Origin: a virus
Taxonomy: Duplodnaviria; Caudoviricetes
Virus record (IMG/VR): IMGVR_UViG_3300028832_000139
Span: 3,419 to 67,418 of that record
Length of the DNA stretch: 64,000 nucleotides
Direction: 5' to 3' (one strand)
Shown here: in pieces, positions 12,368 through 33,700 of the stretch
How positions within the stretch are numbered: position 1 is the first letter of the stretch
How the letters are laid out: each line of letters opens with the position of its first letter
The notes under the pieces: generated by a model
The model's database searches: none
The model's input: the letters and a program-made list of their open reading frames with translations, nothing else
Told to the model about the DNA's origin: nothing
Made by a program: the position numbers and the translations under genes

Positions 12368-12557
12368 CGAGACACCCAAAGGCAGATGTGGCGAGTGCGT
12401 TCACTGTACACCAGTAAAACGATTTCATACCCTGAACTTGCACGGAGAACCAACGCTCGGCACCTGCCCTTATTGGATGGAAAGCAAATGCGTATTACTT
12501 ACACAATTAGGTTGTAAACGATTTAATAAACGAGAATATGAACAAGGAGAAAGTTAA
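12345..12557 (+). CDS. Small Cys-rich (Zn-binding) hypothetical protein
   Basis: CGECVHC...CPYW...C...C. Confidence 0.55.
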   Translation: MGKRRIDDETPKGRCGECVHCTPVKRFHTLNLHGEPTLGTCPYWMESKCVLLTQLGCKRFNKREYEQGES

Positions 12558-13011
12558 GCCCATTGGAGAGGCTACAAGAGAAGATGAAAAGTTGCAGATG
12601 TCGGTTAGGCAGAATTGGGCTGATAACGTAACTGTTCGTGGTAAGAACTTCAAGGTACGTTGGCTGCACCCATTTACTAACGAGTGGATAACATCTTTGA
12701 TGCTTAAAGATGGTAACGACAGCAAGATTATCTGTCAGGCTGCTGCCCTTATCGCTCTTGGTAGTTTCTGGAAGTGTAAGTTTTGGTACTGGCTTGTATG
12801 GCGATGGTTCTATTACATCAAGCAGTATAACGCAAAAGAGCTGACTCCGCTTATCGAGACGGCTCAAAAAAAAACGGCTCAGGAGGTAGCGGTGGCTTAC
12901 TTGAACGCTACAATGTTACTGACCGCACTAAAGGACACGACGAAACAGATGACGAAAGCGGAAGCAGAGCGTACCCTTCAAGAACTTCGTATGGGCAAAG
13001 ATGGGAAATAG
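12538..13011 (+). CDS. Tail assembly chaperone G-like
   Basis: 157 aa; A9 run at 12866-12874 with an open -1 frame leading into the next ORF. Confidence 0.6.
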   Translation: MNKEKVKPIGEATREDEKLQMSVRQNWADNVTVRGKNFKVRWLHPFTNEWITSLMLKDGNDSKIICQAAALIALGSFWKCKFWYWLVWRWFYYIKQYNAKELTPLIETAQKKTAQEVAVAYLNATMLLTALKDTTKQMTKAEAERTLQELRMGKDGK

Positions 13012-13340
13012 CGCAAAAGCACCCTTGGCTGATGCAGCCTTTGACGTTTTTAGGCATCCCGATTACTAAGCCAGGCTACTATATGAACTGCGTGATGACT
13101 AACGCACAGATAGAATTGATAGCGTCTGATGTTTCTGTAGTGGACTACGACCTTAAAAAAGACAAGAAGAAAAAGAAGAAAGGCGAGTTTGATAATACTA
13201 AGGCTGATACTAAGCAGATTAAGGATGCTAACGAGCAATGGACTAAAGAGCATGGCGATGGTGCTAATGCTGGCTGGGTGAACTTAGGCAACATTCTCGG
13301 TAATGGAATGAAACAAGATGTAGGAGTAAACATAGAATAG
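12538..13340 (+). CDS. Tail assembly chaperone GT-like fusion by -1 frameshift (includes ORF 13032-13340)
   Basis: The -1 frame from 12873 (NGSGGSGGLL...EIAQKHPWL) is stop-free and in frame with ATG 13032. Confidence 0.6.
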
Positions 13341-18477: not shown

Positions 18478-19155
18478 ATGGAAATCGAAAAAATCGTTTC
18501 TACCGTGCAGGAACAACTCGGAAACACCGACTTTTCAGCACAAACTATCCAGAAGTACATTGAGTTGAACCCCGTAGCCGAGGGTGCAGAGCCTGACGAG
18601 GCTTATTTCTCTAAGGCAAAGGAGTTCTTTACAGGACTTCAAGGTCAGTTCAATCACGACTTCTCAACAAAGTTCACAGAAGCAAAGAAAAACTTGCTGA
18701 CTGAGGACACGTTCAAGAACCTGTCAGCCGAGCAACTTGCCGAGGTTAAGAAACTCATTGATGGTGTAAAGGTTGAACCTAAGACACCACAAGAGAGCGA
18801 GGAAGTAAAGGCTCTTAAAGAGCAGATTACCGCACTCAAAGAGCGTCTTGACAATGGCGATAGCGCAAAGCAAAAGGCTGAAATTCTCTCAAAGGTGAAA
18901 GCCGCTATGAAAGAACAGAAAGCCAACGACATTTACGTTCTTGAAAAAACTCTTGAAGGAGTGGATATAGACGCGAAGAAATCCGTTGAAGAACTCACGA
19001 AAGAGTATCTGGCTAAGTACGATGCAGAATACCTCAAATGCCGAGGTGATGGTGCTACTCCAAGATTCGTAGGTGGTGGTGGAGGCGATACCGAAACTGA
19101 ACTTGACAAGCGATTCAAGAAGAAAGCAGAAAAAGAGGGTTGGGGTAAGAAGTAA
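18478..19155 (+). CDS. Capsid scaffolding protein
   Basis: Charged coiled-coil protein upstream of the decoration and capsid genes. Confidence 0.7.
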   Translation: MEIEKIVSTVQEQLGNTDFSAQTIQKYIELNPVAEGAEPDEAYFSKAKEFFTGLQGQFNHDFSTKFTEAKKNLLTEDTFKNLSAEQLAEVKKLIDGVKVEPKTPQESEEVKALKEQITALKERLDNGDSAKQKAEILSKVKAAMKEQKANDIYVLEKTLEGVDIDAKKSVEELTKEYLAKYDAEYLKCRGDGATPRFVGGGGGDTETELDKRFKKKAEKEGWGKK

Positions 19156-19207: not shown

Positions 19208-19669
19208 ATGGCAAATCAGGTTTTTCAGACTGGCAATACATTCGATGCTCAGTCATTTGCTATGGGGCATGCACGTAAGGTGTGGCGCCGTATTGAGGAA
19301 CAGCTTCCAGGCGGTTTCTTGATTAAGAATGTTTCGGACTTCGTTAGCGCAAAACTTATCCGTTCTGGTATGGCGGTTGTTAAGGACACGACAGAGGGTG
19401 CAGACGATAAGGACATCAAGGTTCTTACTTGGGCACAGGTTAAGTCTGCTATTAGCGGTTCGGGAATAGATTCTCTCAACATCATCGGCTTTTTGCAGGA
19501 AGATGCACCTATTACTGATGCAAACACTATTGCTACTGGCAATGTGATTGTAAAGGGCGAGATTTATGGTTATATGCTTGGCGATACTGCCAGCGATGCT
19601 GCAACTATCGCTGCTGCCGTTAAGGGTATGACACAGAAGAATGGTCTGTCAATCCGTGTGGTTGACTAA
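19208..19669 (+). CDS. Head decoration protein (putative)
   Basis: 153 aa between scaffold and capsid genes. Confidence 0.55.
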   Translation: MANQVFQTGNTFDAQSFAMGHARKVWRRIEEQLPGGFLIKNVSDFVSAKLIRSGMAVVKDTTEGADDKDIKVLTWAQVKSAISGSGIDSLNIIGFLQEDAPITDANTIATGNVIVKGEIYGYMLGDTASDAATIAAAVKGMTQKNGLSIRVVD

Positions 19670-19698: not shown

Positions 19699-20934
19699 AT
19701 GAAAACTATACCAGTTTCTCTGCGAGACATGATTAACCTCGGTATGTATGGCGAGTCTTGGCAGACATTCGTTGACAAATACGAGGAAAAGTTTAATGCT
19801 ATCACTATTGATGGCTTTGAGTTTGATCCAGTAAGCATTGGTTACACTTGGGCACAGATGCTGTCAAAGGTTGGTGCAACCGTGCTGCCTACTTATGTTG
19901 ATCCTGAGAGCGAGGGTTACGAAATGCCTCTCGGCCAGTTGCAGGGTGCTACAGGTAACGTACCTACGCAAAAGTTGTTCTACTCTGTTAACCGCACTAT
20001 TCTCCGTGAGAAGATGCAGTTGGTACAGAAGTACGGCAATGCCGTTATGGATGACGAAATGCGTGAGGTAATGTTTGGTCTGCTTGACGAGGGTACTGAC
20101 GGACTGATTCAGTCTTTCTGGAACGCTCTGAACCATCAGCGTCATCAGATTGTATCTAAGGGCGAGTTTACTATCAACGCTACCAACAATCCTCGTGGCT
20201 TGAAGGGTATCACTATCGGCTTTAATATGCCTGATGCTAACAAAGACGTGCTGACTGGCTCTGCTCGTTGGTGGACTAACCCAGACCACACTACTGAGGG
20301 TACAAACTCTGATCCCCTTGGCTACTTGGAGAAGCGAGTTAAGACTATCCGCCGCACTTTGCACTATGCAGGCCCGATTAAGATGGAGATTGCCCGTGAC
20401 ACTTGGGATGACTTCTGCGAGCACAGCAAGGTTAAGAGTGTTCTTGCTAATTGGGTATATCGTAACGTATCAAGCGACAGCGCACGTGCTGACATTGGTC
20501 GCTTTATGGATGACGATGTTGTTAAGGAGGCTGTTCGCCGCATTATCAAGGTTGACGAGATTGCTATTCAGGACACCTACGCTTACGTTAGCAAGGTTGG
20601 TACTGATGCCAACGGTCTGCCCGACCTCGTAGAAGATAAGATTGACAACTTCGATCCACAGAACATTGCCTTTGTTCCTACTGGCAAGTTGGGTGGTATT
20701 CAGGGTGTTCAGCCTCTTTCTATGGGTTACGATGCCGATAAGGTGGCTTACGCTATGGGTAATCGTCTGCTTATCGAGCAGGAGGATATGCCTCGCACTC
20801 ACTCTATCAATGTTAATGGCGAAATGGCACAGATTTGTGTTCCTGGCGCTATTATGCACATGTATATCTCTACCATTGCCCCGCATACTGCTGAGGCTTC
20901 AAGTTCTTCTGAGGCTTCAAGTTCAAGCGAGTAA
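19699..20934 (+). CDS. Major capsid protein with C-terminal EASSSSEASSSSE tag
   Basis: 411 aa; head-operon position; major-capsid-E-like motifs (NPLG...I..QD..AY...F.P.GKLG). Confidence 0.85.
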   Translation: MKTIPVSLRDMINLGMYGESWQTFVDKYEEKFNAITIDGFEFDPVSIGYTWAQMLSKVGATVLPTYVDPESEGYEMPLGQLQGATGNVPTQKLFYSVNRTILREKMQLVQKYGNAVMDDEMREVMFGLLDEGTDGLIQSFWNALNHQRHQIVSKGEFTINATNNPRGLKGITIGFNMPDANKDVLTGSARWWTNPDHTTEGTNSDPLGYLEKRVKTIRRTLHYAGPIKMEIARDTWDDFCEHSKVKSVLANWVYRNVSSDSARADIGRFMDDDVVKEAVRRIIKVDEIAIQDTYAYVSKVGTDANGLPDLVEDKIDNFDPQNIAFVPTGKLGGIQGVQPLSMGYDADKVAYAMGNRLLIEQEDMPRTHSINVNGEMAQICVPGAIMHMYISTIAPHTAEASSSSEASSSSE

Positions 20935-20959
20935 TGGCTAATGATAAAGGAATGAACCT

Positions 20960-21358
20960 ATGGCAAAGGTTATGACGATAACACAATACCTCAAAGGCGT
21001 TTCTCAGTTACTCACTGAGGAAGGCCTTGGGTATGTGCTTGCAAAGCGCAAACTGACTGGCGATGAACTGCTGCCTCAGTATGCAGGTACATCTTCTTCA
21101 TCATCAAGTGAGGAATACACCGTGCTTACTGATAAAGACGTGGATTTGGCAGAAGGTACAGCGTATTACTGGCTGTCAAACCTCCCTGTAGGTGGTGCTA
21201 CTGAAAAGGTTTCTGATGGTGGCTGGTCTCATAGCGAGGGTGGTTGGACTGTTTCTAAGGCTAACATTGACGAGTGGCTTCGGAAATATCGTGACCTCTT
21301 TGCTAAATGGGATGAAGCATTGCTCGGAAATTCTACTATACGAATTAAAACATTCTAA
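20960..21358 (+). CDS. Head-tail adaptor (DUF6706-like) with internal TSSSSSSEE
   Basis: Position after the capsid gene; DGGWSHSEGG motif. Confidence 0.6.
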   Translation: MAKVMTITQYLKGVSQLLTEEGLGYVLAKRKLTGDELLPQYAGTSSSSSSEEYTVLTDKDVDLAEGTAYYWLSNLPVGGATEKVSDGGWSHSEGGWTVSKANIDEWLRKYRDLFAKWDEALLGNSTIRIKTF

Positions 21359-21363
21359 CGGAT

Positions 21364-21783
21364 ATGGGCAGACTTGCAAACGGCTTTACTCGCTTTCCTC
21401 ATAGATGCAGCATATACACTATGACTGAACCTACAGGCTTTGAGACTGAGGAACAGATTGCTGCATTGAAGAAAGTAGTTTGGGAGGGCAGATGCCGTAA
21501 GGAAAGCAACACATCTATTCGTACCTTTAAGGGTTCGGAGAATGTTCTGAAAGGTGACTATCGTATTCAACTTGGCGCATTGGTAGGTGGCAACCTCTTA
21601 GGCGATAAGGATGCAGCACCAGACGGACAGCAAGGAAAAGAGTGTGGTGCAGTCGTTGGCGGTATCATTGCAGGAATGTTCATTGATGTAACGGATAGAA
21701 ACGGCAGTTTCACGCTGAGTATAAACGATGCGTATGCTGGCAATCTTGGTACTTCTCTTTACTGCGACGAATACAAAACTTAA
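21364..21783 (+). CDS. Head closure (stopper) protein
   Basis: Synteny; beta-rich, 139 aa. Confidence 0.55.
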   Translation: MGRLANGFTRFPHRCSIYTMTEPTGFETEEQIAALKKVVWEGRCRKESNTSIRTFKGSENVLKGDYRIQLGALVGGNLLGDKDAAPDGQQGKECGAVVGGIIAGMFIDVTDRNGSFTLSINDAYAGNLGTSLYCDEYKT

Positions 21784-21788
21784 TAGTT

Positions 21789-22178
21789 ATGGCAAACAGA
21801 TATAAGAGACAAGAAGTAATGACCGCACTTGTGAATATGGTTAAGCCTATTTGCAGTGAGGTACATACGGCAAACCGAGAGACTGTTAAATCGACAAGCA
21901 ATCAGTTTGTAATCATCAAACTACCACAGGGCATTAACCCTTATGCTGACACTCATAATATCGCCTATGTGCAGTTTCACCTTTTTGCAAAGGACATCAG
22001 CAACGGCATAGAGAGTATAACGAGGATGGAAAGTCTTATAGATGGTGTAAGTGGTCTTTTTCCGTTCAATACTGAACTGATTAGTTGTAACGACACACCG
22101 ACTATCACGGACTCTAAACCCGATGGTATGGGGTATCATTCCATTATTATGCAATTCAAGATTGTAATTAAGGTATAA
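21789..22178 (+). CDS. Tail terminator protein
   Basis: Synteny before the tail tube; QFHLFAKD-like strand. Confidence 0.55.
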   Translation: MANRYKRQEVMTALVNMVKPICSEVHTANRETVKSTSNQFVIIKLPQGINPYADTHNIAYVQFHLFAKDISNGIESITRMESLIDGVSGLFPFNTELISCNDTPTITDSKPDGMGYHSIIMQFKIVIKV

Positions 22179-22197
22179 CAATTAAAATAATACGACT

Positions 22198-22767
22198 ATG
22201 GCAATTACTGTAACAAACAAAGAAAATCTAAAGCAGATTTTTGACAAGGTAAACCGAGTTTACTACTTTGCCGACGCTAACACGGCACTTGGCTCACAGA
22301 CTCAGGCTTTGGAGTTCCCTGTTCTTGCTGATGGTGTAACCTTTAACACTGGCGATCCTGACAAGAACGAGGTTAAGTTGACTGACGATACCACTTGGAC
22401 TTCTAAGGTTAAGCAGGGAGAGAGCGACATCAGCTTTCAGGTTGCATCTGTTCACTCTACCATTAACGACTTGTTGATGGAGAAGAAGACATCTGCTGCT
22501 ATGACGGGTGCTTTTGGTGGCATCAACTATTCAGGTCAGGGTTACTCACTGGCTCCAAAGAAAGTTGCTGGTGCTCTGCTGATGGTTAGCGAGGACAAGC
22601 TGACTGCTATCTATCTGCCTAACGTGGAGATTTACGCTTCATTCAATGGCGAGGGTGGCGATGACTCTACTGGTTACTACAACGTATCAGTTACTCCGTT
22701 GACCGATACTAATGGTGCTGCTTTCTACCCAATGACAGGTACTGCAACATCTTCTTCAAGCGAGTAA
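22198..22767 (+). CDS. Major tail (tube) protein with C-terminal TSSSSE tag
   Basis: 189 aa, beta-rich, followed by a terminator. Confidence 0.75.
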   Translation: MAITVTNKENLKQIFDKVNRVYYFADANTALGSQTQALEFPVLADGVTFNTGDPDKNEVKLTDDTTWTSKVKQGESDISFQVASVHSTINDLLMEKKTSAAMTGAFGGINYSGQGYSLAPKKVAGALLMVSEDKLTAIYLPNVEIYASFNGEGGDDSTGYYNVSVTPLTDTNGAAFYPMTGTATSSSSE

Positions 22768-22794
22768 TCTTTTTGGCATAAATTCTATAGCAAA

Positions 22795-22830
22795 TGTGGG
22801 GCGGCGGCTAATGACCGCTACCCCATTTTT
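22795..22830 (+). terminator. Rho-independent terminator after the tail tube gene
   Basis: TGGGG-CGGCGG...CCGCTA-CCCCA followed by TTTTT. Confidence 0.7.
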
Positions 22831-22842
22831 AATTGAGAAACT

Positions 22843-24186
22843 ATGAGTGACTATAAAATATGGGTATCATATCACAAAGACGAACTTGTGCAGAAGTACG
22901 GCTTGCACGATGACGAAACGCACAAGTTATTCGCTACCCACCATGACGTAGAGGGTAAGAACATCAACGCTCTTAACCCTGTATATTCAGAAATGGTAAC
23001 GATGTACTATGTGTGGAAAAACAACCTTAAAAGCGATTATGTAGGCTTTAACCACTATCGTAGAAAGTTCGATGTTACCAGACTGCCTGAAAAGGGAGAG
23101 TGCCAAATCCTTAGAGTCAATGACTTTGGTTCGGAAACAATTTATCAGCAATACGCAAAGTGCCACAATGTGCGTGACCTTGACACTATGCTGAAACTCC
23201 TTGATGACAAATATGGTGCTGACAATGCTTACACAAAGCATATCAAGGAAAGCCATGTTATGTACTCAAAGTGCTGCTTCTTGATGAAGTGGTCTGACTT
23301 CACAAAGATGTGCAAGTACCTTTTCCAGTTGCTCGATGACTTTGCTTCCGTATGCGGTTGTGTTACTAAAGAGGACTGGCACAAGAAAGCCGAGAAAGAC
23401 TTTGACGATAAGGATGACTATCAGATGCGAGTAGTATCTTTCCTTGCAGAGCGTCTTATCTCTGCTTGGATAGCAACAAATCTCAGTCCGTATATTGATG
23501 GCAGAAATGTTGCGGTGGTACATTACAACACTCCTGAACTTACTGAGGCTGCTATCAAGTCGCTTATGAAGCATACTCACGGATGCCATGTTTATGTGTT
23601 TGACAATAGTGACAAGAAGCCTTTTACTGCTAAGATACCTAATGTGGAGGTTATCGACAATACCAATGGGCAGATTATCGACTTTGAGGCTGAGTTAGCA
23701 AAGTACCCTGACAAGTGGGAACGTGATACCAAAAAGAGCAACTACGGCTCTGCAAAGCATTCAATGAGTGTTGACAAACTGATGGATATTGTGCCAACAG
23801 GCTTTGTGCTGATTGATTCCGATGTTCTTATCAAGGAAGATATAAGCCGTTTCTGGGATAAAAAGGTTTCGTGCCTTGGTGCAGAAGAAGTAAAGCACGA
23901 TGTTCCCCTGCTTATGCCGTTCCTTTGCTATCTCAATGTTCCTATGCTTCGTGAAAAGGGCATCCGCTATTATAATGGCGAAAAGATGTGGGCACTCAGC
24001 AATATCGAGCCTAATCAGCATTACGATACTGGTGCTTGGCTGCTTGAAGAAGCAAGAAGAAATGATCTGCCTATCGAGTATGTCAACATCTGGCAGTATG
24101 TGATACATTTCGGACACGGCTCTTGGAGAGGGAATAAGGCTAAGACGGATAAATGGCTTGAAGAAAACGCAGCATTATGGAGGTAA
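22843..24186 (+). CDS. Two-domain glycosyltransferase (DUF4422 plus GT2-like)
   Basis: N-terminal IWVSYHK...NINALNPVYSEM...DYVGFNHYRR; C-terminal VVHYNTPELT...LIDSDVL (DxD). Confidence 0.8.
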   Translation: MSDYKIWVSYHKDELVQKYGLHDDETHKLFATHHDVEGKNINALNPVYSEMVTMYYVWKNNLKSDYVGFNHYRRKFDVTRLPEKGECQILRVNDFGSETIYQQYAKCHNVRDLDTMLKLLDDKYGADNAYTKHIKESHVMYSKCCFLMKWSDFTKMCKYLFQLLDDFASVCGCVTKEDWHKKAEKDFDDKDDYQMRVVSFLAERLISAWIATNLSPYIDGRNVAVVHYNTPELTEAAIKSLMKHTHGCHVYVFDNSDKKPFTAKIPNVEVIDNTNGQIIDFEAELAKYPDKWERDTKKSNYGSAKHSMSVDKLMDIVPTGFVLIDSDVLIKEDISRFWDKKVSCLGAEEVKHDVPLLMPFLCYLNVPMLREKGIRYYNGEKMWALSNIEPNQHYDTGAWLLEEARRNDLPIEYVNIWQYVIHFGHGSWRGNKAKTDKWLEENAALWR

Positions 24187-25064
24187 AGACGATAGACTAT
24201 GTTGTTCCAATGGTCTTTCACGAAGATACTCTTTGGCAGGAAGATTTCAAGAAAGTAAACCATCAGTATGATGCGCATAACCCTTATGACTTTGTGCGTT
24301 TCAGAAGTTGGAATACTGAGGAAATCCTTATCAAGTGCGTAAAGAGGTTTATGCCTTTTGTGCGTAACATCTTTATTCTCTTGGCGAGAGAGAGCCAAAA
24401 GAAGTCTTGGATGGATGCTGAGGGCGTTCGCATAGTCTATCATCACGATTTTATTCCTGAGAAGTTTTTGCCTACGTTCAATTCGTGCGCTATAGAAATG
24501 TTCCTGCATCTTATTCCAGGCATCAGCGAGCGATTTATCTATGGTAATGACGATATGTTTCCTGTTGCGCCACTAACAGAGCAAGATTTCTTTGAGAACG
24601 AAGTGCCCTGTTTGCATCACGGACAAAAGCCTTTCCCAACCTCACCGAATATCTTTCACGACTCTTGCCGTTGCGGTCAGAACTTTGTCGCAAGGGAGTT
24701 TGGTATGGACTTTAGCGATGTGCTTATTCGTGGCGGTCATAGCCTTACTCCAATGCTGAAAACAACGTGGAACTACCTTTGGCATATCGGTAAAACGGAG
24801 ATAGAGGATAGTGTTAGTCCTTTTAGGGAGCAAAAGAACTTCAACCAATGGCTGTGTCCTTGGTGGCATTACCTATCAGGCAACTATATAGACAGAGTGC
24901 CGAGCAAGGTATATGTCAGCACAAAGAATAGTGTTGAAGAAGTTGTTAAGGCTATAGCCGACTGCAAAGGTATCATCTGCATTAACGATAATGAGTGTGA
25001 AGATGACTATATGAAGTATGGTAATGCGGTAATAAACGCAATAACAAACAAATTAAATAACTAA
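24177..25064 (+). CDS. Stealth-family sugar-1-phosphate transferase
   Basis: CR1 IDYVVPMV; CR2 RF(R)S...MPFVRNIFI...FIP..LPTFNSCAIE..LH.IPGISERFIYGNDDMF; CR3 H..TPM; CR4 ICINDN. Confidence 0.88.
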   Translation: MEVKTIDYVVPMVFHEDTLWQEDFKKVNHQYDAHNPYDFVRFRSWNTEEILIKCVKRFMPFVRNIFILLARESQKKSWMDAEGVRIVYHHDFIPEKFLPTFNSCAIEMFLHLIPGISERFIYGNDDMFPVAPLTEQDFFENEVPCLHHGQKPFPTSPNIFHDSCRCGQNFVAREFGMDFSDVLIRGGHSLTPMLKTTWNYLWHIGKTEIEDSVSPFREQKNFNQWLCPWWHYLSGNYIDRVPSKVYVSTKNSVEEVVKAIADCKGIICINDNECEDDYMKYGNAVINAITNKLNN

Positions 25065-25067
25065 GAT

Positions 25068-25601
25068 ATGAACAGCAGAAATACATTGTTACTCCAAAAA
25101 GGAAATGGTAGTGTTGTCAATACTTACGACCAATGGGGTATTGTTTGCTGCAAAGTGCCTTTTAAGGCAGGCGGTAAGACAAAAGAACCTGCAAACCGAG
25201 AGTGGAATGACGAACACGGAGAGGATGCTTTTTTTCCTAATAAACTGATGTTTGAGGCTTACGATGCTGAGTTTGAAATGGCTTATATGGGGAAGGAATT
25301 AGCAACCAATCCTTTCAACCTCTCGCTTGCCTGTGTAAAGATTGGTTCTTTCAAAAAGTGGCTGACTGGTAATGATACAACAGGCGGTAGCGGTTCGGAG
25401 TTGAAGATATACTCGCCTTATGCCGCTATCGGTAGGCAGAAGTGCTACCTTTCCGAGATTTCAAGTGAGGATGCAAGAGTGGTAACGAGACAAGAGGGTA
25501 ACAATGTCTATAACGAGAATGTTGTGACCTTTAAGGTTAAGTTCCGTGTGTGCGATCCTATGACGGATATTACACTCAGTACAAGTTCTTCAAGCGATTA
25601 A
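25068..25601 (+). CDS. Distal tail (Dit)-like protein with C-terminal TSSSSD tag
   Basis: REWNDEHGED...VTFKVKFRVCDP; tail operon position. Confidence 0.6.
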   Translation: MNSRNTLLLQKGNGSVVNTYDQWGIVCCKVPFKAGGKTKEPANREWNDEHGEDAFFPNKLMFEAYDAEFEMAYMGKELATNPFNLSLACVKIGSFKKWLTGNDTTGGSGSELKIYSPYAAIGRQKCYLSEISSEDARVVTRQEGNNVYNENVVTFKVKFRVCDPMTDITLSTSSSSD

Positions 25602-25603
25602 CT

Positions 25604-26131
25604 ATGAGCCACAATAACGCAAAGATACTGAAAGACGGACTGAAAAAAGGGTATGAGCAGATAGTGAAGTACCTTTATAAGCAAATGTACGATATGTGCG
25701 AGCGTCTTTTAGTTGAAGTGCCTTTGCATCGTCAATACCTTGGCTTTACTGGTAATACGCAGACTTCTTACGCTTGTGGATTGTACGTTGACGGAACACT
25801 TGAAGGCATCGTTACGCAGAAGAATTGGAACTCGCCACCTGTTCATAGGAAAGTGAAGATTGGCGAATGGGTGTATCTACGCAATCCGTATGAAGGTCGT
25901 TCACGAAGTATAAGAGGTACTTCGCAAGTAACTGATAACTTCGGTCTTGACACCTCTATCCGTTTTTTGAGGTCTTTCAATGCAAAGAAGAACACTATAC
26001 AGATAGTTATGACTACTGGTACCGAATATTCGGCATATCTTGAAGCAGCAGCAGGTCTTGATGTGCTTACTGGCACTTATGAGGCTGCCAAAGTGATATT
26101 AGCGCAAGGTTTTAAGCCTATGCAGACGTAA
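25604..26131 (+). CDS. Tail completion protein (HK97 gp10-like)
   Basis: FTGNTQTSY...TGTEYSAYLE...VLT motif; start at ATG 25604. Confidence 0.6.
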   Translation: MSHNNAKILKDGLKKGYEQIVKYLYKQMYDMCERLLVEVPLHRQYLGFTGNTQTSYACGLYVDGTLEGIVTQKNWNSPPVHRKVKIGEWVYLRNPYEGRSRSIRGTSQVTDNFGLDTSIRFLRSFNAKKNTIQIVMTTGTEYSAYLEAAAGLDVLTGTYEAAKVILAQGFKPMQT

Positions 26132-26657: not shown

Positions 26658-27143
26658 ATGGCATTAGATTCAAATGACCTCGCAATGCTGCATGGTATGG
26701 GCTTTTCTCCCTATGAACAGGTAAAGATTGGCTATATGCAGAACAAAAAAGCCAGTGGCACTTCTATAGGTGCCCTTGCAACAGCCGTAGGTGCTGGTGT
26801 ACTCGCTATCGGTGGTGCCGCCTGGGCTGCATCCAGAGCACAGAACGCAAAAGATGTTGCTATCGCCAAGAATGATGGTTTGAAGGATTTGGTTCAGACA
26901 CTTGCAGGCACTCTTGCTGCCGAGCGTGGTGAGCGTATTGCTGGCGACCTGAACATTACGAACACCATCAACGACACTGTTAGTGGCTCTCAGCAAGGCT
27001 CACTTTCTCAGTCTCAGCAGCTTTCTAACGAGCTGACCTTTGGTCTTATGACAGGACGCTACTCTGAGAATCCACAGCGTGTAGCCCTTTATCAAGATGC
27101 CAAGCCTTGTGCTTGTCCTTGCTCTTGTGGCTGTAACGGTTAA
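26658..27143 (+). CDS. Gly/Ala-rich hydrophobic-helix protein ending CACPCSCGCNG
   Basis: Own promoter TACTTTTG at 26591; followed by a perfect palindrome. Confidence 0.75.
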   Translation: MALDSNDLAMLHGMGFSPYEQVKIGYMQNKKASGTSIGALATAVGAGVLAIGGAAWAASRAQNAKDVAIAKNDGLKDLVQTLAGTLAAERGERIAGDLNITNTINDTVSGSQQGSLSQSQQLSNELTFGLMTGRYSENPQRVALYQDAKPCACPCSCGCNG

Positions 27144-27150
27144 AGTTTGG

Positions 27151-27182
27151 TTTTGATCCCGAAACGGATTTCGGGATCAAAA
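27151..27182. terminator. Perfect 14-bp inverted repeat
   Basis: TTTTGATCCCGAAA-CGGA-TTTCGGGATCAAAA. Confidence 0.7.
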
Positions 27183-27237
27183 TCTTTCCAGTGTTTAAAG
27201 AATTGGAAAGAAATGGAAAGAACTAACACGGCAAGTT

Positions 27238-27594
27238 ATGTGGTTCATAAGTAAAGAAAGGAAAAAGAAGATGGAGTTTATACAGAACTTTGTACCGACA
27301 AGTAAGGCACAACTACTACAGGTCGCTATGTATCTCAATGGTGGCGATATTAAGAAAGCTCAGGAGTTTGTGGATTTCTATGCAAAGAATCTCGAACTGC
27401 CAGACTTTGATCCTATTGCACCTACTTTGATGCAACAACTGAAAAGCGGTGCATCGGGCTTTTTCTCTTGGGTAAAAGAAAACCAAAGCGACCTTGTGCA
27501 AGGCTACCAACTTATTCAGGGTATCATCCAAAATAAGGGTGTGTTGCCTATCACTCCATCAGCGAGCGAACCACTACCAAGTATTAACGATTAA
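27238..27594 (+). CDS. Hypothetical protein (cassette)
   Basis: Operonic ORF. Confidence 0.7.
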   Translation: MWFISKERKKKMEFIQNFVPTSKAQLLQVAMYLNGGDIKKAQEFVDFYAKNLELPDFDPIAPTLMQQLKSGASGFFSWVKENQSDLVQGYQLIQGIIQNKGVLPITPSASEPLPSIND

Positions 27595-27605
27595 AACACG
27601 GCATT

Positions 27606-27809
27606 ATGGAAGTAAGAAAAATATCGTTCAACATCTACGCAAGTAGTGACGAAGAAGCAGAACGTGGCTGTAAGGCTATCAAGCAGTTTATAGATATAAT
27701 CGGTCAGCATGGCGCAATGGTGTCTGGCAACAAGATAGCCGATGCAGTGAGCAAATTGCCTGAGAATAGTTTTGTTCTCTCGCAGATAATCAAGTTTTTC
27801 AAGGAGTAA
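27606..27809 (+). CDS. Hypothetical protein (cassette)
   Basis: Operonic ORF. Confidence 0.7.
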   Translation: MEVRKISFNIYASSDEEAERGCKAIKQFIDIIGQHGAMVSGNKIADAVSKLPENSFVLSQIIKFFKE

Positions 27810-27860
27810 CGTCACTGATTAGAGAGTAGTTAGAGAGTATTATTAAGTTCATAATAAGTT

Positions 27861-28130
27861 ATGGAAGAAAATAAGTTTAAGTGTTCTGGCGATTGCCTTA
27901 ATTGCCACCCAAGCCAAAGAGCCTATTGTGCAGCTCAGTTTACATATAACTCTATGCGTATGATAGAGGATATGAAAGGTTCTATCTCTGAACTCAAAGA
28001 GAAGATAGATGCTATGCAGAATAGGGAAGCAAACGTGTTTAACCCGTCAGGAGAAAATTCGGAAATTCCGAAATTACCCATAGCGCAAAGTGGGGATGGC
28101 GCAGAAAATAGAAGCCCCGAAACAATTTAA
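27861..28130 (+). CDS. Cys-motif plus coiled-coil protein (cassette)
   Basis: CSGDCLNC...YC followed by a heptad segment. Confidence 0.7.
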   Translation: MEENKFKCSGDCLNCHPSQRAYCAAQFTYNSMRMIEDMKGSISELKEKIDAMQNREANVFNPSGENSEIPKLPIAQSGDGAENRSPETI

Positions 28131-28141
28131 CTCAAAGTATT

Positions 28142-28582
28142 ATGTGTAACAACGGAAAAACAATCGTGGAGTATCTTACTCCTGTGCCAGGAGGTACGGC
28201 AGCAAACGCCACCTACCTATTGGCTCTCGACCACTTCACTTGTGGTAACAAGAAATTATGTGTAACGGATGCCTACCTCGTGTCGGCTGACGTTAAGTTT
28301 ACTCCTATCAGCTCTCCTGTGAGCGTAGGTAATGGCAGTTTTTGTCAGGAAGTACAGGTTAGCGGAACAGTCACCTATATGCCGTTCAAGTGTGGCTGCC
28401 AGTGCGGTGTCTGCCCTGTAACGGAGAACATCTACACCACCTTCTGTGTACCTTGCTCGTCAGCAGTAAGTCCTACACTAACAATAGGTGAGGCTGTAGC
28501 CAGTCCTACAAACGTACAGCCTTGCAGTAACGTGACTAACGCTATCGCTATCACTACAAGCATAAACGTAGCAACGGCATGA
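28142..28582 (+). CDS. Cys-rich beta-strand protein (cassette)
   Basis: 11 Cys including CGCQCGVC; 146 aa. Confidence 0.75.
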   Translation: MCNNGKTIVEYLTPVPGGTAANATYLLALDHFTCGNKKLCVTDAYLVSADVKFTPISSPVSVGNGSFCQEVQVSGTVTYMPFKCGCQCGVCPVTENIYTTFCVPCSSAVSPTLTIGEAVASPTNVQPCSNVTNAIAITTSINVATA

Positions 28583-28920
28583 ACTGGATAGATATTGCGT
28601 GTATAGTGTTCGTGTGTGTTACGGCTAACCACCTCGGACTGATTAAGGCCGTAGAAAGCGTGATAAGATGTCACGACTTGCCAATCGTCAGCTGCCCAAA
28701 GTGCTTAACTTTCTGGTGTACGTTAGCATACGACTTGTGGTGTGTCGGCTTTTCCGACATACCACTAATACTCGCAGTATCTTTCCTCGCAAGCTATCTC
28801 GCTATATGGCTTGAATTATTTGAAGGATATATTGACACTTTATATGATAGGTTCTATGAGAAGATTTATCCAACAACAGAGAACGAGAAACATACCGACG
28901 GCACCATGCCCGACGTGTGA
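28579..28920 (+). CDS. Membrane protein with CPKC motif (cassette)
   Basis: Hydrophobic segments; SCPKCLTFW. Confidence 0.7.
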   Translation: MNWIDIACIVFVCVTANHLGLIKAVESVIRCHDLPIVSCPKCLTFWCTLAYDLWCVGFSDIPLILAVSFLASYLAIWLELFEGYIDTLYDRFYEKIYPTTENEKHTDGTMPDV

Positions 28921-28946
28921 TAATAGTAACTTAAAAGTTAATAACA

Positions 28947-29429
28947 ATGAACGCAGAAGAATTAAAAAGTAAGTACGAGTCGCTGTATAAGTATATGGCG
29001 AACTCTAACGAGCCAGACAATATGAAAGCGTTTGGCAAAGTAATGACTGAAATGTTTATGTGGTATGCAGACAATAAGCCTGATGCCGCAAGTGAATGGT
29101 TAGATAAGTTGTCCGCTATTATGTGGAAGAACTATCTCACGCCAAAGGAGGCTGATGTCATCGTGGCTGCAATGAAGCCAGAAGCACCTTGGAACAGGGA
29201 ACAATGGAGAGGTGCAATGGAGAAACACGGCTTTGTTATGGATGAAGAACCATACTACAACCGATGCGCTCTGTATGCTACTATGAATATGATTATGTCA
29301 GATAGTAGCGCAACACTATCAAAGTATGTCAATGGCGAGGAAATGTTCAAGGTCGTTCACGATCTCGCTGTGGATAAGCTCAAAGACGCAGACGGAAAGT
29401 TTAGCATTAGAGCCTACTTTGGACTATGA
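28947..29429 (+). CDS. Helical hypothetical protein (cassette)
   Basis: 160 aa; W..EQW...YYN..ALY..MNMI.SD. Confidence 0.7.
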   Translation: MNAEELKSKYESLYKYMANSNEPDNMKAFGKVMTEMFMWYADNKPDAASEWLDKLSAIMWKNYLTPKEADVIVAAMKPEAPWNREQWRGAMEKHGFVMDEEPYYNRCALYATMNMIMSDSSATLSKYVNGEEMFKVVHDLAVDKLKDADGKFSIRAYFGL

Positions 29430-30652: not shown

Positions 30653-30724
30653 TATATTTGCAGCGATAATTGCAATTATTAACAACAAGCCATAGAGAGC
30701 TGCCCTTCTGGGTGGCTCTTTTTT
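30653..30724 (+). promoter_or_regulatory. Tape-measure promoter and attenuator-like leader hairpin
   Basis: TATATTTG at 30653; AAGCCA-TAGAGAGCTGCCC...GGGTGGCTCT-TTTTT. Confidence 0.6.
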
Positions 30725-30746
30725 GGTTTTTATTTGGGATAACGTT

Positions 30747-33700
30747 ATGGCAGGTAATCTTGGTACGCTGTGGTTTGGTGCTGATATTGACCTAACAGCA
30801 TTAAAACAAAAAATACAAAGTGGCAATCAGAGTATTCTTGATGCTCTAAAGATAAGTTACGATCCTCAAAGTTACCAACAAATGGTAACAAGACTGAGGA
30901 CACAACTTTCAAAAGAAACATTTGAGGTGAAACTGACTGCAAACACGCAGAATGTGGTAAACAATATCCAAAACGCTACTAAATCAGGAACGTTTAGGAA
31001 TACTGGAATTGACGAACTGAATGAAAAGATAAAAGTTCAAACGCAGTATGTAAATAATCTTGAAGCCAGATTAAAGTCACTTGCTGTTACCTATTCTCAG
31101 TTAAAGAATAACGGACAACTCTTGCAAGCAAGTAGTTATAAAAATCAAATAGCGAGTGTTAGTCGTGAACTTATTGGCGAAAGACAAACATTAAAGGATT
31201 TTATAGCGGAACGTGCTTCTTTGCGTAATTCTTCAAATGATGCTTTGCTTCAACTAAAGAGAGAGAGAGCAGAGCGCAAGGCATTAGGAGAGGAAGAACG
31301 CAGGTCAGTTGCTCAAAGAAGAAAAGAGGTAAACCAACTGACAAGCGACCATTTGAGAATGAATGCAACTATTGCGGGTGGCATCCACGTTTCAACGCAA
31401 TTAGGAAGTGCATTGTCTTCTGTTTTTGCAATACACTATGCTCGCCAGTTTTTAGACAATGTTATTGAGATTGGCGGTCAGTTGGAAAAACAGCGTATCA
31501 GTATTGCCGCTATTCTTGGCGATGCCTTAAAAGCAACACACCTGTTTGAGCAGATTAAGGACTTGGCTCTTAAATCTCCATTTGGTGTTGTCGAACTCGA
31601 CCAATATACTAAGCAACTTGCCGCTTACGGATTTAAGCAGAACGAGTTGTTTGATATGACAAAGCGACTTGCTGATATTTCGGCTGGTGCAGGTCAGGAT
31701 ATTGGCAGATTAACATTAGCATTAGGTCACGTTAGAAGTGCTACATACCTTACGGGTATTACACTTCGTCAGTTCTCTATGAACAACATACCTATGTTGA
31801 AGATGCTTGCCGACTACTATTCAGAGGTAGAGAAAAAGGCTGTATCTACTGCCGATGTTCAAAAGCGTATTTCTAAGCGTCAGGTAAGTTATCAAGATGT
31901 TATTGAACAGATACGCAGGCTGACTGACGAGGGAGGTATGTTTTACAATATGCAAGAGAAGATTTCAGAGTCACTTGCTGCAAAGTACAAGAATTTGAAA
32001 GATGCTCTTGATATTATGTATGGCGAGATTGCTGAGAGTAATATAGGCGATGCGATGAAGAATACTGCCGAGGTTTTACTAAAAACTACAAGGCATTGGA
32101 AAGAGATTGCGGCAGCCGTAAGTATTGCTGCTGCTGCTTTTCTTGTTGGTAAAATGAGAATTGGCGTAGAAACACTTGCGCTGCAAGGCAATACTGCTGC
32201 AACATTAAAGAATATATCAGCAAGCAAGCAAATTACTGCAAACAAACTGAGAGCTGCTGCTGCTTATAGGTCGTTAACAAATCAGGAACGCATACAGATA
32301 GCATCTTCAAATAGCCTTACTGCTGCCGACTTACGTTTGGCTATGGCAGACAAAACGCTGAATAAGGAAGATGTATTGCGTCTTGTAGCCTTAAAGAAAA
32401 TTAAGATAGCTCAGGCGATGCACCTTGTAGGTGTAAACGGAATTACTGCTGCTGAGATTAAGGCTGCTGCTGCCACAAAGGCATGGAGAGTGCAGTTGGC
32501 TGGCATCGGTATGTCGCTAAAGAACGCTTTTCGTGGTGTCGGTGCTGGTACGTGGGGTACATTGGCAATGATGGTTGGTGCTGAACTTTATATGGCATGG
32601 GATCAGTGGAACAGCAGAATAGACGAGAAAGCAAATGAAATGAAAGATTTGGCTAAGTCGCATATTACCGACTTACAAAAGATGCAGAAGTCTATCCTTA
32701 CTAACGGAAAGCCAAAAGATAATACCTCTATGAAGAATACCATTACTGAAATGAAGCAAGTTTTGGCTAATTCGGAGGCATATACTAAGACACTTGACGA
32801 GCAACTGAGTAAGACTTCTTCTCTTCCAAAGCAATACGAAATACTAAAAGGTGCTATTGACGATGCAGTAGAGGAAAGCCGCAAAATGCTTGATGTTCAA
32901 GATAGAGCAGCAGAACTTATCAAAGCAAGTAAGAGTGATTTTTCTTGGTGGGATGTCACTAAGATGGGTTTATTATCCCCTACTGCCACCAAGAATGTGT
33001 GGAACCAGGTATTTAATGATGATGTAAAGACTAATATTGACGATGTTAATAACGCTTACAAGTCACTTCGTAAGACGCTTGATAGCCTATACGAATACAA
33101 AGAGCCGTTAAAGGAACTAATAGAGAGTATTAAGAACTCAGATATTAGCGAGGACTTAAAAGAGCAACTTGAAAAAGCACCATTTGAGGAACAATTAAGA
33201 ATACTCGCAGAAAATGGCTATTGGAAAGAAATAGAAAACAAATTAAAAGGTGTTGGAAAAGCATTTGGAAATAGCGAAACTGAGGTTAAGAACGTTTGCG
33301 AAAAATTAAAAGGCTCTTTGGATGGAGTTAAAGAGGAATGGGGAGAAATATATGGCGATGACATTCCAAAGATGTATGAGAAGATGCTTGCTGAGTTTGA
33401 TGGCGATGAAAAGAAACTGAAGCAATGGGTGTTTAATAACATTGACGATGTTCGCAACCTTCTTGACGGTATATTAGACCAAATTGGCGAGAAAGAGCCA
33501 CAGATTAGAAAATATTTTAAGCGAATGTATCTTAACTATGTTCGTTTTGCCGACCTGATGAAAACTGAGGAAGGTGCTGCACTTGCCGAGGGTGCTACTA
33601 TTGGCGCAACTCTCTTTGATAAATCAATGATGGATAAGTTGAATAAAGAAAAAGAACTTGCAAACTTAGACGATGATGGCTCTGGTGCAAAAAACGACAA

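Follow-up and report, generated by a model that had tools for sequence, protein, structure and literature searches.

Poly-serine tags on virion proteins and a Stealth-family transferase are gained and lost together across phages: a candidate system for virion glycosylation

Why would four virion proteins of one phage carry similar short runs of serines, and why would two sugar transferases be encoded among its tail genes? These questions are raised by a stretch of 64,000 nucleotides (hereafter the window) from the IMG/VR virus record IMGVR_UViG_3300028832_000139, which has 67,418 bases and is rated complete; the window corresponds to its bases 3419-67418. The sequence-only reading of this DNA had proposed that the serine runs, of the form SSSS(E/D), are tags that accept a glycan, and that the two transferases use them to coat the virion with sugar. 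Our analysis makes it likely that the phage does encode a system that decorates its own virion with glycan on these poly-serine tags. The argument starts from the distribution of the tags and of one of the two enzymes, a member of the Stealth family, which are gained and lost together across phage lineages. The region in question is a late operon on the plus strand, and the features that concern the tags and the enzymes are the following.

19699-20934, plus strand: major capsid protein, 411 amino acids, with the C-terminal extension EASSSSEASSSSE (Pfam Phage_cap_E, E 2.8e-6)
20893-20931, plus strand: capsid tag, two EASSSS units and a terminal E (read directly)
20960-21358, plus strand: head-proximal protein, 132 amino acids, with the internal insert TSSSSSSEE at 21089-21115 (no family match)
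22198-22767, plus strand: tail tube candidate, 189 amino acids, ending in TSSSSE (22747-22764) before the stop codon (synteny and an Atlas lead)
22843-24186, plus strand: two-domain soluble glycosyltransferase, 447 amino acids (Pfam DUF4422 and a match to WbbM)
24177-25064, plus strand: predicted Stealth-family hexose-1-phosphate transferase, 295 amino acids, soluble (Pfam Stealth_CR2)
25068-25601, plus strand: Dit-like tube-fold tail protein, 177 amino acids, ending in TSSSSD (25581-25598) before the stop codon (predicted fold)

When the sequence was read directly, all four tags of the sequence-only reading were present, in the capsid protein, the 132-amino-acid protein, the tube candidate and the 177-amino-acid protein, with the capsid tag running as EASSSSEASSSSE up to the stop codon. 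A six-frame scan of the 64-kb window showed that runs of at least four serines are confined to four real genes, all of them virion genes; the sole other such run in a long open reading frame (ORF) lies in a 183-codon antisense ORF inside the transferase gene. The same scan found the scaffold, portal, terminase and enzyme genes free of tags, as had been claimed. Given the serine frequency of 0.063 across the 79 proteins of the window, 0.29 runs of four or more serines are expected, and five were observed, three of which end one residue ahead of a stop codon. None of 2000 within-protein shuffles reached either the observed number of runs or the observed number near a stop codon. The tags are non-random and are restricted to four virion proteins.

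Runs of this kind could nevertheless be neutral, functionless low-complexity products of replication slippage or duplication. The capsid tail is indeed a diverged tandem duplication of a 15-nucleotide EASSSS unit, and tag length varies among close relatives, whose capsid tags consist of one to four units with 4 to 20 serines in total. However, the serine codons of the tags are mixed (TCA 8, TCT 7, AGT 5 and AGC 3), as had been noticed earlier, and of the 45 distinct C-terminal tags 38 have an acidic last residue, 25 of them a single Glu after the serine run. The tags are located only at the termini or in loops of virion proteins, and they have been gained repeatedly together with one enzyme, as described below. 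Together with the failure of shuffling to reproduce the pattern, this leaves a neutral origin with next to no probability.

Do homologues of these proteins manage without the tags? The nearest named relatives of the phage, LoVEphage and the Bacteroides/Phocaeicola phages BI-TP1 and PV4-TP1, are distant, with a DNA identity of 72% over 154 bases only and a capsid identity of 48% (window capsid against the BI-TP1 protein that is annotated as major head protein). In BI-TP1 the genes are ordered in the same way and the enzyme genes are absent; its capsid ends in ...ISTVTV and is untagged, its 124-amino-acid homologue of the 132-amino-acid protein has no serine insert, and its tube protein ends in ...RKKVSE. 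In an IMG/VR relative, L014 (L-numbers denote the viral and assembly loci compared in the analysis), the capsid is 73% identical to that of the window and untagged, the homologue of the 177-amino-acid protein is encoded directly behind the tube gene with no enzymes between, and none of these proteins is tagged. Judged by these homologues, which end or continue without them, the tags are additions.

The co-occurrence of tags and enzymes was followed in 265 viral loci, which were retrieved by searching with the capsid, the C-terminal domain of the 447-amino-acid transferase, the Stealth protein and alignments of two capsid families. Genes on these loci, many of which are fragments, were called by us as greedy ORF calls. 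Coupling was judged on tree-based independent pairs, the capsid tree being built with the tag columns left out; a Fisher test over all genes was set aside as confounded by short loci and relatedness. In two capsid families, all 17 poly-serine-tagged capsids with enough downstream DNA have a Stealth gene about 2-4 kb downstream, and about 60 untagged capsid relatives have none. In capsid family A (LoVEphage-like), nine distinct tagged capsids have 4.4 kb or more of DNA behind them, and each of the nine has Stealth 3.1-4.3 kb downstream; none of the 32 untagged capsids has it. The family A tree requires four changes for each trait, and four of four independent pairs go in the same direction. Family B, which has a different major head protein (phrog_29), has Stealth with eight of eight tagged capsids; on its tree three independent pairs agree, in three others Stealth comes without a capsid tag, and no pair shows the opposite. 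Over both trees, seven of seven informative pairs go in the same direction and none in the opposite one (two-sided sign test, p ~0.016). A third putative capsid family (L105, L109 and L033) has serine-rich acidic ends, EGSSSSD, GGSSDAGSSD or DSDSSI, adjoining Stealth. The counts for the other virion proteins were as follows.

132-amino-acid protein (p132): tagged in 4 of 19 Stealth-positive and 0 of 53 Stealth-negative cases, the insert having up to 17 serines
next neck protein (p139, 139 amino acids in the window): tagged in 3 of 17 Stealth-positive and 0 of 51 Stealth-negative cases
tube protein: tagged in 10 of 19 Stealth-positive and 0 of 56 Stealth-negative cases
Dit-like protein: tagged in 4 of 6 Stealth-positive and 0 of 8 Stealth-negative cases

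No tag was found without Stealth in any of the five virion protein families, and tags and Stealth are gained and lost together across phage lineages. The sequence-only reading had suggested this comparison, and its outcome, tags present in relatives with the transferases and absent in those without them in several independent lineages, is in its favour.

What is the enzyme to which the tags are coupled? Both transferase genes lie between the tube gene and the gene for the 177-amino-acid protein, and the second had been read correctly as Stealth: its product matches Pfam Stealth_CR2 (PF11380) with E 2.6e-26 and 92.4 bits against a cut-off of 39.4. Profile matches were found to CpsY of M. tuberculosis (8j2n, 2.3e-17) and to the catalytic domain of N-acetylglucosamine (GlcNAc)-1-phosphotransferase (GNPTAB; 7s6n, 5.5e-16). 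With the CR1 (IDVVYTF-like) and CR4 (CLND/CIND) motifs defined as in PMC1285062, the protein has a CR1-like start, IDYVVPMVF (residues 6-14), and CIND as its CR4 motif (residues 268-271). Neither of these varies in three relatives, and the conserved NDD motif is present as well. For Stealth_CR3, the window protein gave no Pfam match at E<=10, and the relative L105 gave a weak one (E 0.19). The Stealth family consists of hexose-1-phosphate transferases, whose products are glycans with phosphodiester links (PMC1285062, PMC5974469), and by its motifs the window protein is probably one of them, with release of uridine monophosphate expected.

The CR2 region, the CR1-like start, CIND and NDD are common to the window enzyme and to capsule polymerases of the CsaB/CsxA type, CpsY and the animal GlcNAc-1-phosphotransferase. 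Unlike the cellular Stealths, the window enzyme is phage-encoded, ~295 amino acids long, soluble and part of a virion operon, and it is without the C-terminal ...FPEKSxFE end of Bacteroidales capsule-locus paralogues. Its proposed acceptor would be a protein tag or the first sugar on that tag, whereas cellular Stealths act on a capsule polymer or an N-glycan. Both window enzymes are free of membrane and signal segments, in keeping with the assembly of virions in the cytoplasm. A divergent Stealth (~38% identity) lies directly after the tube gene in L113 (7425-8324), L162 and L172, where capsid and tube have no serine-rich ends; this Stealth may have a different acceptor or a different role.

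The 447-amino-acid enzyme had been read as a fusion of DUF4422 with a GT2 glycosyltransferase. The first part of this description stands, since the N-terminal domain matches Pfam DUF4422 with E 1.3e-27; WbbM is the protein in which this domain was originally defined, as a GT111 galactofuranosyltransferase (PMC12269835). The second part does not, because no GT2 family was matched at E<=0.01 by the whole protein or at E<=1 by residues 220-447. We rejected GT2 for the C-terminal domain, for which a GT8-like GT-A fold is predicted instead. The best sequence match of the enzyme was WbbM of Klebsiella pneumoniae O2a (6u4b; E 2.2e-8), a bifunctional GT111 and GT8 galactan polymerase that has the same order of domains, DUF4422 followed by a retaining-type GT-A domain. 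WbbM was also the best fold match of the predicted model (predicted local distance difference test score, pLDDT, 66), with E 2.3e-9 over 501 columns and both domains, and with an identity of only ~14% over the fold alignment. The next fold matches were GT8-like and other GT-A enzymes, LARGE1, GlyE and XXYLT1 (E 3e-6 to 4e-5) and PBCV-1 A64R. The VFDNSD and DSD motifs of the GT-A domain are invariant; Pfam Glyco_transf_8 gave only a weak match (E 0.052) to the relative L008 and none to the window domain.

The make-up of the cassette varies among relatives. In at least six of them Stealth, DUF4422 and GT-A domains are fused in single proteins of 737-746 amino acids, which indicates that the three domains act in one pathway. 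Some relatives have the GT-A domain alone, or a GT92-like enzyme swapped in, which in L008 takes the place of DUF4422. The GT-A domain accompanies Stealth in 14-15 of the 17 tagged loci; in L097 Stealth alone follows the tube gene, and the capsid is tagged. As a separate observation, some cassettes (L005:14556-15416 and L008:14650-15510, also L033:10669-11568) encode a protein of 286-300 amino acids without counterpart in the window, which combines a weak phosphoribosyltransferase-like N-terminal domain (Pfam E 2e-5, under the cut-off) with a C-terminal half that is conserved, and which may make or activate a sugar donor. The GT-A domain also occurs, alone or fused (products of 230-814 amino acids), in more than 50 other viral contigs (L026-L093, up to 412 kb).

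How might such a system work? Because the invariant partner of the tags is a Stealth protein, a hexose-1-phosphate transferase, the glycan very likely contains a sugar-phosphate link. The sequence-only reading therefore holds as to the coupling of tags and transferases, but not as to plain O-glycosylation of the mycobacteriophage type, since Stealth points to phosphoglycosylation or to a phosphodiester-containing glycan, which is probably what is made. What is shown is the tags, the enzyme families and their coupled gain and loss; that the tags are the acceptors and are exposed on the particle, and what the linkage and the sugars might be, we infer. Late in infection, the structural operon would yield the two soluble cytoplasmic enzymes along with their substrates, which would be the short disordered poly-serine tags, mostly ended by Glu or Asp, at the C-termini of the capsid, tube and Dit-like proteins, and the further tag inserted in a loop of the small head-proximal protein. 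The enzymes would attach a glycan with at least one sugar-phosphate link to serine hydroxyls, giving an anionic sugar coat on head and tail. In the order that we prefer, Stealth would first move hexose-1-phosphate or N-acetylhexosamine-1-phosphate from a uridine diphosphate (UDP)-sugar to serine, forming Ser-O-P-sugar, and the GT111 and GT-A domains would then extend it, possibly with galactofuranose and a pyranose, as WbbM does. Stealth and the WbbM-like enzyme might in this way build up, over head and tail, a poly(sugar phosphate) brush similar to a capsule or to teichoic acid. Direct Ser-O-phosphoglycosylation, in which Stealth itself would transfer sugar-1-phosphate to the serine hydroxyls of SSSS(E/D), is suggested by analogy, and we put it forward tentatively, with a chance somewhat below even.

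Several observations weigh against this account in whole or in part. The characterised Stealth enzymes that we found use sugar acceptors, and none of them uses a protein serine (PMC5974469; GNPT structures). No UDP-galactopyranose mutase (glf; GLF PF03275) is present in the 67-kb phage genome, so that any galactofuranose would depend on the host. Four Stealth-positive relatives, L023, L113, L162 and L172, have untagged capsids, and in L113 none of the neighbouring genes has a serine-rich end. In L097 and L099 tags and Stealth are combined, and 51 kb of contig yielded neither a GT-A nor a DUF4422 domain; since the L097 contig is 59% complete and the L105 record has a GT-A domain 60 kb away, the proposition that Stealth alone suffices is weakly based. 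Similarly, the more than 50 viral GT-A loci without Stealth have no serine tags within 10 kb (~800 genes), but only two or three of the GT-A-only loci hold a recognisable capsid, which makes the argument that GT-A alone means no tags a weak one. The models of the tube and glycosyltransferase proteins are, in addition, of moderate confidence (pLDDT 66-70).

The acceptors of characterised Stealths (PMC5974469), among which are the matched GlcNAc-1-phosphotransferase and CpsY, favour a reversed order of events. A neutral sugar would be placed on serine first, by the GT-A domain, the GT111 domain or a host enzyme, and Stealth would then add sugar-1-phosphate as a branch, a cap or the starter of a polymer, resembling the action of GlcNAc-1-phosphotransferase on mannose and of capsule polymerases on sugars. 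The frequent company of GT-A and Stealth in tagged loci and the GT-A domain elsewhere in the L105 record are consistent with this order, as are two fold neighbours of the GT-A domain, GlyE and PBCV-1 A64R, whose substrates are a serine-rich repeat protein and a capsid, respectively. However, the tags track Stealth and not GT-A: L097 and L099 have tags and Stealth with neither GT-A nor DUF4422 in the 51 kb at hand, and the GT-A-only loci, few of them with a capsid, are untagged. We regard the reversed order as rather unlikely, yet as a serious rival.

Could the enzymes have another target altogether? They might act on host surface polysaccharide, in lysogenic conversion or superinfection exclusion, or on phage DNA, the tags then being unrelated spacers or sites of another modification, for example phosphorylation. 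The best-known tasks of phage glycosyltransferases are the glucosylation of DNA and serotype conversion (PMC12619734), Stealth genes of bacteria are found in capsule loci (for example L270-L286), and the four Stealth-positive phages without capsid tags would fit a target outside the virion. Against such a target stand the seven of seven informative pairs in which tags and Stealth change together and the lack of any tag without Stealth in the five virion families. The genes moreover follow immediately on the tube gene, inside the late structural operon, and the enzymes are soluble, with no flippase, lipid-carrier enzyme or membrane anchor encoded nearby. A target other than the virion thus appears highly improbable, and decoration of the virion on the poly-serine tags is the reading that we retain.

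On which proteins would the glycan sit? The 132-amino-acid protein has no Pfam or PHROG match, and its Atlas matches are viral hypothetical proteins only. The sequence-only reading had called it a head-tail adaptor; this name found no family support and was rejected, and in BI-TP1 it belongs to the homologue of the next gene. The 189-amino-acid protein is a candidate for the tail tube on the strength of synteny, its homologue being encoded directly before the chaperones and the tape measure in BI-TP1 and L097, and of an Atlas lead to tail-tube clusters with PF25681 on 33% of members. PHROGs place it in a family of unknown function, and a PDB profile search with the tube alignment gave chance-level matches only. 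The description of the 177-amino-acid protein as Dit-like was borne out by its predicted fold, which resembles Dit proteins with Z 9-11. Its AlphaFold model (pLDDT 70), in which the tag region is disordered, was aligned by VIA-align to the monocin tip (Z 11.1), the 80alpha baseplate Dit (Z 10.5; root-mean-square deviation 3.4, 110 aligned), the p2 Dit (Z 9.7) and the SPP1 Dit (Z 9.1), with TP901-1, p2 and SPP1 in the range 9.1-9.8. The gene lies 5 kb upstream of the tape measure gene and not in the Dit position directly downstream of it.

The remaining structural genes of the operon are arranged around those already described.

18478-19155, plus strand: scaffold-like protein
19208-19669, plus strand: decoration-like protein
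20960-22178, plus strand: three small head-completion or neck proteins
30723-36305, plus strand: tape measure protein, after further small genes

Two tail assembly chaperone homologues (12547-13337, plus strand), 60% and 48% identical to those of L008, are encoded upstream of the tube gene at a distance of ~10 kb, on the far side of the terminase and portal genes of the minus strand, unlike in BI-TP1, L008 and L097, where the chaperone genes lie between tube and tape measure. The ORF that follows the Dit-like gene (25550-26131, plus strand) probably has its real start at the ATG at 25604, right behind the stop codon of the tag. It is a homologue of BI-TP1 gp31, annotated as 'putative tail component', which in BI-TP1 lies between neck genes, so that the gene order is rearranged in the window. 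A module of small genes (26658-29429, plus strand) separates the Dit-like gene from the tape measure gene and encodes a 161-amino-acid protein ending in ...CACPCSCGCNG, a Cys-rich protein of 146 amino acids, a hydrophobic one of 113 and one of 160 ending in ...RAYFGL. The same module recurs, sometimes inverted, in the unrelated Stealth-carrying phages L105, L108 and L109.

Mycobacteriophages are, to our knowledge, the only phages for which glycosylation of the virion has been demonstrated to date. Their glycans are reported at the C-termini of the capsid and tail tube proteins (Freeman 2023, as cited in PMC12619734 and PMC11256854). The system proposed here resembles theirs in that the mycobacteriophages Che8, Corndog and Myrna also use phage-encoded glycosyltransferases and C-terminal serine acceptors on capsid and tube, with modification in the cytoplasm and the whole particle covered. 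The Che8 genome agrees with this precedent, which the sequence-only reading had invoked: the capsid ends in ...TGS, the tube in ...DGS, and transferases are encoded. These plain ends differ from the poly-Ser-Glu tags of the window, where neck and Dit-like proteins are tagged too, unlike in Che8. The enzymes also differ. Those of Che8 (gp108-110) comprise two GT2 enzymes, one of which is fused to a methyltransferase, and a GT25, and their genes are 50 kb away from the structural genes, at the other end of the genome; those of the window, Stealth and the GT111/GT8-like enzyme, lie inside the tail operon and are not homologous to gp108-110. The hosts belong to different phyla, Actinomycetota for the mycobacteriophages and a Bacteroidota-type host for the phage of the window. 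Whereas the mycobacteriophage glycan has been demonstrated on the virion, the system described here is known from genes and sequences alone.

A second likeness is with protists. Leishmania proteophosphoglycans, Dictyostelium GlcNAc-1-P-Ser and Trypanosoma cruzi gp72 also have serine-rich disordered acceptors with a sugar-1-phosphate linkage, a linkage that in the phage is predicted from the enzyme family. Serine-rich backbones bear phosphoglycans in Leishmania (PMC3384971), and Stealth genes occur in these protists (PMC1285062, PMC3384971, PMC3630849). The protist process is eukaryotic, however, and takes place in the Golgi lumen, and its transferases are not linked to Stealth in the literature that we found. 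Our literature search returned nothing relevant on Stealth or poly-serine tags in phage virions.

How far does the system extend? A search of 5.8 billion proteins found at least 266 related Stealth clusters in metagenomes, all unnamed. A separate search of a cultured-phage collection gave no match. In bacterial assemblies, the closest relatives of the window Stealth are in rumen metagenome-assembled genomes of Prevotellaceae/Bacteroidales, and one of these loci is a provirus-like stretch with a capsid and tags of family C; the more distant bacterial matches are ordinary capsule-locus paralogues. The phage had been described as a gut Bacteroidales phage. Judged by the nearest cellular Stealths the host phylum is plausible, and the habitat looks like the ruminant gut. 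The system is probably a variant of phage virion glycosylation that, to judge from the spread of related sequences, is widespread in rumen and gut phages.

Such a variant would extend virion glycosylation to abundant Bacteroidales phages of gut and rumen, with different enzymes and with an acceptor tag simple enough to be spotted by eye. Stealth as the partner suggests a negatively charged glycan with phosphodiester links, and one may speculate that a coat of this kind could alter antibody recognition, adhesion to mucus or to the host capsule, protease resistance or the charge of the particle. Were Stealth to act on serine itself, this would identify a class of enzymes for the phosphoglycosylation of proteins, and direct transfer, if true, would be the first protein O-phosphoglycosylation known outside eukaryotes. 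The short SSSS(E/D) tag would then be a portable sequon that could direct the coat onto any protein, and the enzyme and its tag would make a compact pair for protein engineering.

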